From positions 48,546,001 to 48,610,000 of the forward strand of contig OZ024750.1 in assembly GCA_964016885.1 (NCBI GenBank): a stretch of DNA of 64,000 nucleotides. The letters run 5' to 3'. The translations under genes and the position numbers were made by a program. The notes beneath the pieces were generated by a model. That model had not been told where the DNA came from and did not search any database. It saw only the letters and a program-made list of their open reading frames with translations. Source of the stretch: Eledone cirrhosa (lineage: Eukaryota). Shown here in pieces: positions 1,270 to 45,910 of this stretch (position 1 is its first letter; every line of letters begins with the position of its first letter).

Positions 1270-1846
1270 AAAAACAAATAACGAAACGAAATTAAATTTC
1301 GTTTCGTTTGTAACTCACTTTTGTATGACTGATACTAGTATTTCAGTATACATATGTGGATGTACATTTTTAACTTAATTGTTTAAGCGTCAGTCATACA
1401 AAAGTGAGTTACAAACGAAACGAAATTTAATTTCGTTTCGTTATTTGTTTTTATCGTCTCCGCTGAACCGGTATGTACTCACGCTCTATGCAAATTAGTC
1501 TGCCCACTACTAATTTTCATAGAAAAAGCATATAACGATATGTGCTTTTACGATTCTCTAGAAAGGCCGGAAGATAGGTAAATATTGCTGATGAGATGTA
1601 ACAACATCGAAACTAGTCCAATATTCCTTGTCTGGCTTTCTGGAGAATAGAGGAAAGGTGTTTCCTCGAAAACCAGTATGACTCTAAAAACCGGTTTGTC
1701 TGTGTGTTTACATACAGAATAGCTGGACACTCACAGTAAAGTGTCCAGTGAAAAACTCGGTACATCTACATATGTACACGTGTGTGTATTCATATGCATA
1801 CTAGTATTTCAGTATACATATGTGGACGTACATTTTTAACTTAATT
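1270..1846 (+). mobile_element. Small HHR-bearing retrozyme-like / non-autonomous PLE-type element (family 'Oct-HHR'), ~466 bp unit with terminal direct repeat and inverted 5' segment, in (TA)n
   Basis: 1332-1381 is repeated at 1798-1846. 1270-1332 is the reverse complement of ~1390-1452. Contains an intact HHR (1581-1625) and ATGCAAAT (1488-1495). Flanked by (TA)n. Confidence 0.7.
1581..1625 (+). ncRNA. Type I hammerhead ribozyme (canonical core, short palindromic stem III)
   Basis: AATATTG-CTGATGA-GATGT(aaca)ACATC-GAAA-CTAG-TC-CAATATT: 7 bp stem I, 5 bp stem II, GUC cleavage triplet. Confidence 0.88.
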
Positions 1847-2114
1847 ATATATATATATACATATATCTATTATTCAAAATATTAATAAATGGATACATTC
1901 ACTTAATCAAAATATATGTTTTATTATATATATTTCGGAGATATAATGTATATATATATATATATATGTATAACGAAGTGTCAAACCAGGTTCATTGATT
2001 ATTCAATGAATATAGTTTTACAATAGATTAAAAGCACTCAACAAAAAAATTTCTGGAGTTATTAATATTATTCAAAATATTAATAAATGGATACATTCAC
2101 ATAATCAAAATATA

Positions 2115-2180
2115 TGTTTTATTATATATATTTCGGAGGTACTGTGCTGTTTTTCAGTACGTCCTCATCAGATAAAATAC
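2115..2180 (-). ncRNA. Type I hammerhead ribozyme (left arm copy)
   Basis: Reverse complement reads TATTTTAT-CTGATGA-GGACGTACTG..CAGTACCTCC-GAAA-TATATA-TA-ATAAAA. Confidence 0.8.
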
Positions 2181-3199
2181 ATAAATTGATGTATGACATA
2201 CCTCAACTGTGCTGATGGTTCAATTCCAGTCTTGGCAGTGATTTATTACGACAAAACTCAATATATTTATATACCACAAGTAAAGGTGTGACAAACCAAA
2301 TATGATGGAGAGAGATAAGTAGCGAAATATAAGTATTAGGAGGGGGTGAGTAGGAGAAAGTATAGAATAAATAAATAAATAAATAAATTAATTAATTAAT
2401 TAATTAACACATAAGTATATAAATGTTTAATATTTAAATATGTAAATATCCGTGTTAGAAAAAAGGACAAGAGAGAGAGAGAGTGCTAAATAGAAGAGAA
2501 AAGGGGAAAAGATAAAAAGATTAAGATAAAAAAGAAGGGAGAGGGAGATAGATATGATAGAATATATAATTGCATAAGGAAAATATATAAAAAAAGAGAG
2601 AAAGAAAGAAGAAAGGGAGATGATGCGTGACCGTTTTTTTTCCAAATATTAAGTCAGTTAGAAGCGATCAATTAAATACCGTGAACTTTTAATGTATTGA
2701 ATTTGATTATATTGAGCACATTATACTATTATATTATATCAAAATTAAACACTATAAAATAGTTATCAATGATAATCAGGAGCAAAGTTAAATTAATAAA
2801 TATATTCAAAATTTAGTTACAAAATTTAAAGTCTGAAACATTACTAAGTACCAATGATGTTTATAAATATTTATATATATCGTATGTAAGTATGAGAGTA
2901 TGTATTACAACTTAATTGCATATCAGCATCTGCATATGCATTTTATATAATGTTTAGAATTATGAATATTATAAACTATGTAAATCAATAGTTGTCAATT
3001 ACATATATGATTAATTATTAGTTATATTTACTCTTGAAAGTATTATTATTTCGATTCAACTAAATCTTATAGTATTCAATACTATAGGTCAAGTTAAATA
3101 CAGATTACACCGTGTAACATATTTTTTGTTCCCCGGTTCTAAGTGTCATTTCATGGTTTGTTATATCCCATTATTATAAAAAACACTATTATTTAATCA

Positions 3200-41960: not shown

Positions 41961-42954
41961 GTTTGAAGTGGTCAGTAAGCTCATTGAATTACAAGAATAA
42001 ACACGAGTCCTTAACTCCGTTGTTTCATTCGATATATGTTATAGAACGATACACCCACAGGCACATATACTAAACATCTCTTGCAAAAAAGAAAATTGAT
42101 TTCGCAATGTCCTATATTGGCAAGTGACGTCATTAAGTTGGAAAGCGAAGTGACCATCGAAAAACGGTTGAAGTCGATTTATAAAAAATGTTAATTAAAA
42201 TCAAAATGTTATCCCAAAGAGAGGAAATTGGAACGTTATCCACTGAAGGTTCCTTAAACACTGCAGAAGGGAAGTTTATGTTCCGAAATAGTGGACATAT
42301 AAAAAGTAAAACAACAAGAACAAAACAAAACAAAGATTACTAGGTAACTTTTATTTTCGTTACCTCATCTTACTGGCCATTTTCCATTGTTCAAGACATA
42401 GATTTAACCACACAATTTTGTGAAATCCAGGAAAAAATCAATAGAGCCTTAACTCAGAATAAAATAAAGTTTAAATACTCATCCTTCAATTTGGAAAAAA
42501 ATACAAATGCTCTGTATAGTCTTAAAAATAATATTTCACGAAACTTTCAGGTGGGATGGTCACGGTTTGAGTCGTTGGTCAGCAGAGCTCAAACACGATA
42601 ACCCTAGTACCACTGTTAGAATATGCCAACATGGGAATTTAAAAGCAGGCTAGTTCACATCATGCGTAATTATGAAATTATATAAATATATATATATATA
42701 TATTTATTTCTATATATATATATATATATATTTATTTCTCTCTCTCTCTCTCTCTATATATATATATATATATATATATATATATATATATATATATATA
42801 TAAATATATATATATATATATATATATATATATTTTTATTTATTTATGTATATATGTATATATATATTATATATATATATATATATATATATATATATAT
42901 ATATATATATATATATATATATATATATATATGTATATATATATATATATATAT

Positions 42955-45260
42955 AAGGAAAATTGATGTAATCGAAAATGCAACTGGAGTCTTTTTTTTT
43001 CAAATATATATATTTATTTTGTTCCTTTACCGATTTTGCAGTTCTTCTGCGTTTCAAAAGTAGAGTTGAGTTGGAGGATCTGTGGTTTTTCTCACTGTTA
43101 TTCACCTTCAATCACCCAAAGCACACGAAGACGAACATCCCTTTAACCTAGCAATAAGAATTTGCACAATTGTCTCCAATTATGAAACGCGAAATAAAAG
43201 ACATCATGTATTAAAGGGAATTCTACTCGAAAGACAGTACCCACCATCACTAATAAATAATGGAATAGAAAAGGCTGTAGCAATAGGCATTGATGAATTA
43301 CGAAAACAGAAACAAAATCAAGTTACGTCTAATATTCTATAATATATCTCAACACACAACCCAATAAATACGCAAGCTTACAACACTATTCACAAGAACA
43401 TCCAACTATTGGAACAAGACCCCAAAATAAAAAAAAACCTTGAAACACACAAAATAATCAAAAGCAAGGACAATCCAAATCAATAAAAACGTTACTCACC
43501 AATGCCAAATTTCTTACCACAAACACACAACCAACTGTCAAAAAATATGGTCGCTCTAATTGTGGAACCTGCACTCATCTCATTTAAGGCAAGACGTATA
43601 CATTTCAATCAGGACAAAATGTTGCTGTAAACAATCACTTCACTTGCTCATCAATAAATCTACTTTATGCCATTAAATGTAAAGGATGCAATGAAGATTA
43701 TATCGGACAAACTAAAATCACACTCAGAAACAGAATGGCAGTACATCGCTAACAATTACAAGATCCAAACACGAGACAGATACTACTAAGTGCACATCTA
43801 GACATGTGCGCAAGTACTAAGACACCCAAATTACAAGTCTTCCCATTTTACCTTTTCGCTGACAATACAATAGAACAACTATGAATAAATAAGGAAAATA
43901 TGTTTATTCAAAAATATAGACCAGCATTAAATATAGTTTAATATACATTATGTCAACACCATAACATGCTAACCATCCAATACAGACACATACATACACA
44001 CACACACATAACACCTACTTTAGAAAATAAAAACCAGAACAAAATAAACCTTAACATACGTTAATACTCTAACACTTTAACATGCTAACCATACACCCCA
44101 CACACACATTTATACTAACGGAATAATTTTCCCACACACAAAATATATATATATTCTCTTCATCTTAACATGCTAACCATATTCCCACACCAACATACAC
44201 ACACACACACATGACATCCATACACACACACAAGTCCCTCCCCCATTTCTACTAACAGAATCATTTTCCTACACACACACACACACAAGTTATATATATA
44301 CTCTCCATCTTAACAGACTAACCATACTCCCCCACACACAAAAACACACATAACACACACACACACAATATATATATTCTCTCCATCTTAACATACTAAC
44401 CATACTCCCACACGCACCTACACACGCAGACACATAAAACGCATACACACACACAACTCCATCCCCCATTTCGACTAATTGAATCATCTTCCTACATACA
44501 CACACACACACACACACAATAGCACACAAATAAACATACATATCTCTAGTTTCATTATTTCAATAGAAAGTCTGAATTCTGACACCCCAGCGAACCAGCC
44601 ATATTCACTGATCCAGAACAATTCTCCCCACCCCATTTTCCTTGACCATTATCTTTTCTTTGGCACAACATTCTCTAAAAGGCTACAAAATAAATTCGGG
44701 CGCGAAATGTAATGAACTTGTTCACGTGACAATCATAATTTCATTTGTAACCAGTCAAATTACATTCATTAAAAAAATCCTTCGTGAACCACTTTTTTAA
44801 AGTAAAAAGCGATTCAAACAAACTGGGACGAAAGCTGATGTGCTTATTCACGTGACTGCATCAACCAACCAAACTTCACATAGGAAGAAAGAACCTGAGC
44901 CCCCACCCCCTTTGTTTGAAGAAATTTGTAACGCAAACTGGCGCGAAATTTATTATACATATTCACCAAAAAATCAAATTACTTCTCTAAAAACTGGTCA
45001 TTTCGAGCAAATTTTTCCATATAAAACAAGTAACATTGAAAGACAACCAAATGTGAGAAAAACCAGAGACCCTCCATCTCAACTCTACTTTTGAAAAGCA
45101 GAAGAACTGCGGAACCGGTAAAGGAACCAATAAATATGTATATTTAAAAAAAAAAAAGACTCCAGTTGCATTTTCGATTCCATCTTCTTTCCTTATACTT
45201 TCATTTGTGTAGGACACCTCGCTTATTTTTCATTTTGTAAAAAGAAGCTCTCTTTCTAAT
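42955..45260 (+). mobile_element. 5'-truncated Neptune-type PLE with inverted 3'-end copy (42955-43097) at its 5' side, in (TA)n
   Basis: PFNLAIRICTIVS..QYPPSLI (RT thumb), GRSNCGTC linker, FTCSSINLLYAIKCKGCNEDYIGQT..RMAVH (GIY-YIG), ending ~43940. Long 3' UTR with HHR at 45087-45124. Confidence 0.85.
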
Positions 45261-45373
45261 ATATATATATATGTATATATATATATATATATATATATAT
45301 ATATATATATATATAATAATAATATATATATATATATATATATATATATATATATATATATATATATATATTT

Positions 45374-45910
45374 AAACGGAAAAGATGAAACGAAATTTCA
45401 TTTCCCACTCTTAGTACGGCTGTTACTTAAATATAAGTATGTATACGTACATACATATATGTATACATACGTACAGTAGTATGTATATATATATATACAT
45501 ACATGCACACATATATGTATGTACGTATGGATTCACCAAACATTTATTATAATGCTCGGTCTGTTTGTAAACAAACATCCCGTATTAAGCCCTAGTGTCC
45601 AGCAACCACCGTTGCTCGTTTGTTCAACACTGACAAAGGAACGCTGTACTAGTTTGAAGCTTTTAGTTATCGTCAGCAACGTATACCTTCCTGCCAGACA
45701 GTTGAACGTCCGAAAGTATATACTTTCTTATGCATATTAACGGCTGAGTAGCCCAATTTGCATATCGAGTGGGTTAATCAGCCGGGTGCACCGACAACGA
45801 TAAACGGAAAACATGAAAGGAAATTTCATTTCCCACTCTTAATAAGGTTGTTACTTAAATATGAATATGTATAAGTACATACATATATGTATACAGACGT
45901 ACAGTAGTAT
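45374..45910 (-). mobile_element. Oct-HHR family copy: 428 bp unit plus ~110 bp terminal direct repeat, in (TA)n
   Basis: 45374-45482 is repeated at 45802-45910. ATTTGCAT at 45756-45763 inside a hairpin. Minus strand CGTTG-CTGACGA-TAACTAAAAGCTT-CAAA-CTAG-TA-CAGCG at ~45642-45681. Confidence 0.72.

Follow-up and report, generated by a model that had tools for sequence, protein, structure and literature searches.

The retrozyme copies in the window and their relatives

The stretch of Eledone cirrhosa DNA analysed here (64,000 nucleotides of contig OZ024750.1, hereafter the window) contains three copies of a short repeat with a hammerhead ribozyme (HHR), and an end fragment of the same kind at 29248, and a comparison across the window sited all four as the original prediction had claimed (Table 1). 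The units are short, low in GC, noncoding and without an open reading frame (ORF) of their own, they occur as dimers to multimers, and each unit type contains a type I HHR, a feature of the non-LTR (non-long terminal repeat) retrozymes. The parts of the unit are arranged in the order upstream box, TATA-like element, HHR, body, hairpin, oligo-T run and fixed 3' end. Terminal direct repeats had been predicted for the units and are present (~48 nt in copy 1, ~25 nt in copy 2 and 109 nt in copy 3), but the leftmost 65 nt of copy 1 proved to be the 3' tail in inverted orientation, and at 29248 two end fragments lie as an inverted pair. Ends against (TA)n at 1385 and 1454 were confirmed in contigs from four sequencing runs, which do not bear on RNA.

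Genome-wide counts were made in the 3.0-Gb assembly containing the window, where an exact HHR core pattern gave 31,937 matches compared to 6 for a reversed control. Unit comparison places the copies in two lineages of one non-LTR retrozyme superfamily, lineage A (copy 1; units of 466 and 469 bp) and lineage B (copies 2 and 3; units of 422-482 bp and variants), which are ~60-64% identical to each other (62%, 2071 of 3351 pairwise columns). Copy 1 had been regarded as a diverged relative of the other two, but it belongs instead to a separate lineage that, judged by its closest matches, is very young and recently active; 24 of the 41 listed matches to its core are 100% identical and lie on 9 contigs, many of them in 466-bp arrays. 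The best matches to copy 3 are 94-97% identical, and among the best 29 the HHR is intact in 26 and the box in 28. The contrast drawn earlier between an intact HHR at 1581 and decayed ones in copies 2 and 3 thus holds for these copies, but the decay is local to them, the HHR being intact in most of the best lineage-B matches. In one lineage-B sublineage (L122, L129, L147-L149 and L153) 8 nt are missing between TATA and HHR, putting the predicted start ~8 nt before the ribozyme core.

Tandem arrays have periods of 422-482 bp, with up to 13 full units observed (up to ~10 in lineage A). In two young arrays (L256 at C1:14.04 Mb and L255 at C1:176.9 Mb) a few unit variants recur without periodicity to form a mosaic, whereas arrays L254 and L257 are nearly homogeneous, a difference suggestive of gene conversion, template switching or the ligation of multimers. 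A period-2 signature of rolling-circle copying was not clean in 8 array regions.

An Rfam scan of the window found a sole hammerhead, a match to HH9 at 1570-1641 in copy 1 (38.9 bits, E 2.5e-6, below the 52-bit gathering score); miRNA matches from the same scan were rejected as artefacts of hairpins and microsatellites, and microsatellites also dominated a repeat search of the window. The copy 1 HHR can be parsed as type I, in which stem I has 7 bp (AATATTG/CAATATT), stem II has 5 bp and stem III is the palindrome CTAG, and its fold has a z score of -4.5, with none of 200 shuffled sequences folding equally well. In copy 3 the core GAAA has become CAAA and stem II is weakened, while in copy 2 both stem III and the site of cleavage are gone. 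Self-cleavage of retrozyme transcripts is predicted from this modelling. Another type I HHR pattern in the window, at 58957(+), has a long stem II, is 5'-truncated at (TA)n and belongs to a separate family with a relative in L178. HHR-like motifs (CTGATGA...GAAA) without an upstream box lie in long inverted repeats at 2171(-)/6812(+) and 29896(-)/30051(+) of the window and at 3358 and 3968 of L231, and may represent further ribozyme families.

Table 1. Retrozyme features located in the window
Feature	Position	Strand	Description
Copy 1, inverted arm	1268..1332	-	Lineage A 3' tail; ends at the fixed distal end (unit ~432) against (TA)n
Copy 1, direct arm	1333..1847	+	One 466-bp lineage-A unit and ~48 nt overlap; ends at the proximal end (unit ~363) against (TA)n
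Copy 1, U6-class upstream box TATGCAAATTAG (the octamer of the original prediction)	1487..1498	+	23.0 bits with the host type-3 matrix
Copy 1, TATA-like element	1531..1536	+	43 nt after box start; inferred start site near 1561
Copy 1, type I HHR	1581..1625	+	Cleavage predicted behind GUC at 1618; stem I, when extended, covers ~1554-1660
Copy 1, T5 run	1833..1837	+	Immediately precedes the proximal 3' end; the distal end has another T5, seen at 1448-1452
Copy 2, lineage B	13245..13685	-	Box 13609-13620; TATA 13572-13577; HHR remnant ~13500-13540
Lineage-B 3' tail fragment (distal end)	29248..29372	-	One arm of the inverted pair
Lineage-B inverted partner arm, proximal end	29462..~29520	+	Centre replaced by (TA)n
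Copy 3, lineage B	45373..45910	-	428-bp unit and 109-nt terminal repeat; box 45753-45764; TATA 45716-45722; HHR 45639-45682 with core mutation

The upstream box resembles that of host U6-class genes

A motif search confirmed that the octamer ATGCAAAT is kept in all three copies, at 1488(+), 13612(-) and 45756(-), with one further occurrence in the window, and that the longer TATGCAAATT occurs 3 times in the 64 kb, once in each copy and nowhere else. The TATA-like motif starts 41-43 nt past the octamer start, and the predicted distance of ~35 nt is that measured from the octamer end. When six representative units (two of lineage A, four of lineage B) were compared, TATGCAAATT was the longest invariant run between the lineages (10 columns, compared to 9 for GAAACTAGT of the HHR), a perfect ATGCAAAT was found inside the box of all six, and the 12-nt box was 96% identical between lineages (92 of 96 pairwise columns) against the 62% of the unit as a whole.

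A box of the form TATG(C/G)(A/T)AAT(T/G)AG, at -76 to -79 and accompanied by a TATA element at -30/-31, was found in seven host promoters (3 U6 loci, U6atac, MRP and 2 tRNA-Sec). It was absent from the 18 U1/U2 loci listed, which share AATTA near -90, TCAGT near -57 and a TATA-like run (~-30); the comparison covered the promoters of U6, U6atac, MRP, tRNA-Sec, RNase P, U1 and U2. A position weight matrix (PWM) built from the seven type-3 boxes gave 15.6-23.0 bits for the six retrozyme representatives and 12.1-26.6 for the host boxes by leave-one-out, compared to at most 2.4 for 9 U1/U2 promoters and a maximum of 11.7 over 117,566 background positions. A U1/U2 PWM did not fit the retrozymes at the expected place (-11.9 to -0.4, against 3.6-15.2 for the host by leave-one-out), and a hybrid promoter of U1/U2 type was rejected, being weak in lineage B and absent in A. 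By these scores the octamer is a match to the proximal box of host U6-class genes (type-3 genes of RNA polymerase (Pol) III) and not to the Pol II promoters of U1 and U2, so that the conserved octamer and TATA module of small nuclear RNA (snRNA) gene type which had been predicted is borne out, but as U6-type rather than U1/U2-type. The host box itself could be bound by a POU factor, although its U6atac version, ATGGAAAT, is a non-canonical octamer.

The host genes thus carry two unrelated-looking upstream elements, not one common proximal sequence element (PSE), with an octamer-like box at -77 and TATA in the U6 class (L061-L063, L114, L158-L160) and AATTA, TCAGT and a TATA-like run in U1/U2 (L073-L089, L111). 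In the U6 array copies L067 and L072 an insertion resembling a short interspersed nuclear element (SINE) at the TATA box displaces the promoter. A dispersed SINE-like family (D17/D18) is also present in the window, at 3204-3394, 5480-5670, 18762-18952, 20875-21065, 28367-28557 and 38193-38383.

Searching the genome for box and TATA at the host spacing gave 617 matches compared to 78 for the control. An old family, C, made up 16 of the first 30 such loci and has a decayed HHR with CTGANGA ~105 nt downstream (exact in 7 of the 16, with at most one mismatch in 10), and a second older family, D, accounted for two more, of which one, L214, keeps its HHR intact and equally far from the box. The box-to-TATA distance in both families is the host's (47-48 nt), both host variants of the box (TTAG/TGAG) are found among the retrozyme families, and 20 further hand-picked matches were D-like and E/F-like remnants, mostly decayed. 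Counted in this way, at least four HHR families carry the box. Rfam gave no match at gathering score on 12 box and TATA loci. Family D was considered as a set of conserved host HHR genes and rejected, as only L214 of the 22 loci examined had a clean core and the others were decayed.

Insertion anatomy links the retrozymes to Penelope-like elements

At 17 lineage-A loci, all 28 of the 3' ends not lying at an edge fall at two unit positions (16 at ~432 and 12 at ~363), 24 of the 28 mapped 3' ends run into 10 bases of pure A/T, and in inverted insertions the two positions are usually found as a pair. The 5' ends, 30 in number, scatter, and not one lies at the ribozyme cut site or at the predicted start; the longest phase-continuous segments measure 4,909 nt. 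In lineage B, too, there are two main ends, separated by ~62 nt. Because the inserted DNA holds the promoter and crosses the cut site, we infer that the template must be circular or multimeric. Penelope-like elements (PLEs) are marked by inversions at the 5' end, a one-sided tail and insertion into (TA)n (PMC8557442), and the retrozymes combine fixed 3' ends and a one-sided tail with 5' truncation or inversion and a (TA)n microsatellite target; the mobilisation by PLE enzymes proposed in the original prediction therefore finds support in their anatomy.

The genome contains an abundant Hydra-like PLE with intact open ORFs (713 aa), in which the DKT and CxCX5C motifs are present and RWK is not, so that its clade label is tentative, as well as a Neptune-like PLE, and both show the two-end anatomy. 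The Hydra-like PLE was rejected as the parent of the retrozymes, since over 30 loci its ~1-kb 3' untranslated region (UTR) showed no pattern-detectable HHR and no similarity to them, and the end of the Neptune-like PLE resembles the retrozyme tail in no more than a short T-rich stretch. Among the 98 partly overlapping retrozyme loci screened, none had a unit that ran on into a PLE ORF, and where PLE pieces near retrozymes were inspected, (TA)n lay in between.

Fragments of Hydra-like PLEs (reverse transcriptase and C-terminal GIY-YIG) lie in the window at 57141-58846(-), 61942-63005(-) and 47992-49109(+). The family of the first has many open ORFs of up to ~713-726 aa genome-wide and a 3' UTR of 1 kb with no pattern-detectable HHR, which contrasts with Hydra PLEs, said always to have an HHR. 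At L197, L198, L171 and L231 retrozymes and PLEs are stacked in common (TA)n tracts as nested insertion hotspots.

Transcription and a proposed replication cycle

The host Pol III genes contain no internal T4 and end in T5-T10. In five of the six retrozyme representatives no T4 occurs between the predicted start and the T4-T6 at the 3' end, a statistically weak pattern with P 0.05-0.10 for each, these being non-independent and A4 also being scarce in lineage B. As the promoter-containing template must cross oligo-T runs, pure Pol III could hardly make it, and the oligo-T at the unit 3' end means that replication would need read-through. Pol III is stopped by T4, T5 and T6 in 75, 95 and 99% of cases, and human type-3 promoters also load Pol II, which ignores T-runs (T6) (PMC6023835). 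Given that human precedent and the T-runs to be crossed, the most likely source of the read-through transcript would be Pol II loaded on the type-3-derived promoter, to which we give about even credence; leaky Pol III is a somewhat weaker candidate, and passing host transcription a distinctly unlikely one.

Unit anatomy, copy number, recent activity, arrays, the two fixed 3' ends, inversions and the identity of the box with host type-3 promoters were all observed, and we consider it probable that these elements are an HHR retroelement superfamily with a captured host U6-class promoter inside the unit, likely self-transcribed and likely reinserted into (TA)n by Penelope-type enzymes. Transcription of an array (a dimer or longer) would start ~30 nt past the TATA element and run through the unit's oligo-T and the promoter DNA of the next unit, and two successive ribozymes would then cut out a monomer, probably acting as dimers because of the CTAG stem III, for which there is an amphibian precedent (PMC7229834). 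The monomer would likely be circularised and, being circularly permuted, would hold inside the RNA a promoter which is normally gene-external, so that this could survive retrotransposition. On a nicked (TA)n target, a PLE enzyme would likely prime close to the tail hairpin, at one or the other fixed site, and copy one or more rounds, second-strand priming giving the inversions. Solo copies, such as the three in the window, have one HHR each and would be dead ends, an argument also made for schistosome repeats (PMC6765202). Contigs joining back on themselves at 466 nt (X4/X5) were not used as evidence of circles, since tandem DNA gives the same.

Several observations weigh against a captured U6-class promoter and the cycle built upon it. 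The distance from box to TATA is 42-43 nt in lineages A and B, 4-5 nt shorter than the 46-48 nt of all 7 host genes, and spacing is tightly conserved in insect U6 genes (PMC1761439); the retrozyme TATA elements score 0.4-7.6 compared to 8.1-13.8 in the host; and in families C and D, which were recovered by a host-spacing search, the spacing was selected by the search itself. Conservation of the octamer above its flanks, a check proposed with the original prediction, shows in the identities given above, but the invariant run has P 6.5e-4 only if its site is taken as pre-specified; a 10-column run anywhere in the unit has a permutation P of ~0.10 among six related representatives of two lineages, and one six-unit lineage-B array bears ATGCATAT in the box. 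Among the host genes, the box is missing from ten further U6 and five further U6atac matches, and their treatment here as pseudogenes is partly circular. RNase P, normally a type-3 gene, has no U6-type box here, its gene (L113, G000:C24:12936134) having instead a U1/U2-type AAATCAGTG box (PWM 16.7) and ending in T9; a polymerase switch or a hybrid promoter is possible. Each unit of A466 contains two T5 runs, a T6 is present in several B lineages, and C and D have T4-T8 directly after the HHR. Finally, the retrozyme tail is not shared by the Hydra-like or Neptune-like PLE, the two families surveyed, and array variants, used as a phase test of the monomer boundary, did not indicate the HHR cut site as that boundary.

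Of the other explanations, the best placed is an ordinary Pol II promoter of POU octamer and TATA, under POU (possibly tissue-specific) control and of an origin unrelated to host U6-class genes. The perfect octamer in all six representatives, a TATA spacing unlike that of host type-3 genes and T-runs that favour Pol II would all suit it, as would, in lineage B, a TCAG 26 nt before TATA as in U1/U2, although this is weak (background fraction 0.015-0.05) and absent in A. It is nevertheless improbable, as the match reaches past the octamer into the host box, both host variants of which are seen in retrozyme families, and families C and D have exactly the host spacing. Still less probable is that the promoter module is a relic, or a source of short helper RNA, with the replicative RNA coming from passing host Pol II and the arrays growing by DNA-level exchange. 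The oligo-T directly after the HHR in C and D and the mosaic arrays of recurring variants in non-periodic order fit such a scheme, but the retention of the box at 96% between lineages only 62% identical does not, nor do arrays which are bounded by retroposition-type fixed ends and nearly identical across contigs. That the unit is only the pseudo-LTR (pLTR) of a longer autonomous PLE, as might be thought because Xenopus retrozymes are related to PLE pLTRs (bioRxiv 2026.07.22.740005) and PLE ORFs adjoin some copies (L197, L198, L002), is very improbable given the 98 loci screened, the (TA)n that sets off the adjoining ORFs, the separate upstream pLTR of two other full-length copies of the same PLE and the 30 PLE 3' UTRs, in which the only exception was one separately inserted retrozyme, although an ancestral pLTR origin of the unit is possible.

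The captured U6-class promoter thus remains the explanation that we prefer. Rather doubtfully, it might be extended to a succession of animal retrozyme families capturing this gene-external promoter, in which the young clades would have shortened the box-to-TATA distance by half a helical turn and so switched to read-through Pol II. Ordinary SINEs lose a gene-external promoter at retrotransposition, while ribozyme cutting and circularisation would keep it if the proposed cycle is true, and the family would then be a natural high-copy experiment in the choice between Pol II and Pol III, in a host whose U6-class genes have an octamer-like box instead of the U1/U2 PSE.

Comparison with known systems

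The retrozyme superfamily is real and active, its copies number tens of thousands and its latest activity is very recent, and it is the captured U6-class promoter that is the new element, the retrozyme kind itself being known. A literature search which missed most subscription papers and the supplement of PMC7229834 (which might list cephalopod retrozymes) found neither a cephalopod retrozyme nor a retrozyme with a U6-class promoter. Metazoan non-LTR retrozymes (Cervera & de la Pena 2020, PMC7229834; Li et al. bioRxiv 2026.07.22.740005) are similar in their type I HHR, low-GC noncoding tandem units, lack of PBS and PPT and association with PLEs; they are already known in a mollusc (mussel), and the PLE link is argued in bioRxiv 2026.07.22.740005. 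Their units are of 150-450 bp, so that the 422-482 bp found here is at or above that range. The accessible parts of those two papers do not discuss an endogenous promoter or address the transcription of animal retrozymes, whereas the units described here conserve a host U6-class box and a precise, testable promoter, start site and terminator can be proposed. The PLEs of the Hydra and Neptune clades share 5' inversions, a one-sided tail, (TA)n targets and an HHR with the retrozymes, which unlike them have no ORF and a tail of 62-70 nt compared to 30-40 (PMC8557442).

The fixed ends and long arrays of lineage A provide a clean substrate for studies of PLE integration, and the host U6-class promoter defined here (box at -77, TATA at -30), distinct from that of U1/U2, should be useful for guide-RNA expression. 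The original prediction drew a parallel with newt satellite 2, which reportedly contains an octamer. The parallel is sound in its logic, newt satellite 2 being an HHR repeat whose unit includes an snRNA-gene-type promoter of its own and which has a short palindromic stem III (PMC2220036, PMC6765202), but not in promoter class, as the newt promoter is reported to be of Pol II snRNA type (PMC2220036) while the box here is that of U6, U6atac, MRP and tRNA-Sec and is absent from U1/U2. These retrozymes would thus represent a third promoter solution, beside those of the newt (Pol II snRNA) and the schistosome (Pol III). The promoter of the Schistosoma Sm-alpha and Sj-alpha repeats is internal and tRNA-type, whereas here it is a gene-external box and TATA. 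Those SINE-like HHR repeats are otherwise comparable in being associated with Pol III, in having the promoter at the 3' end of the cut monomer and in that only tandem copies propagate (PMC6765202).

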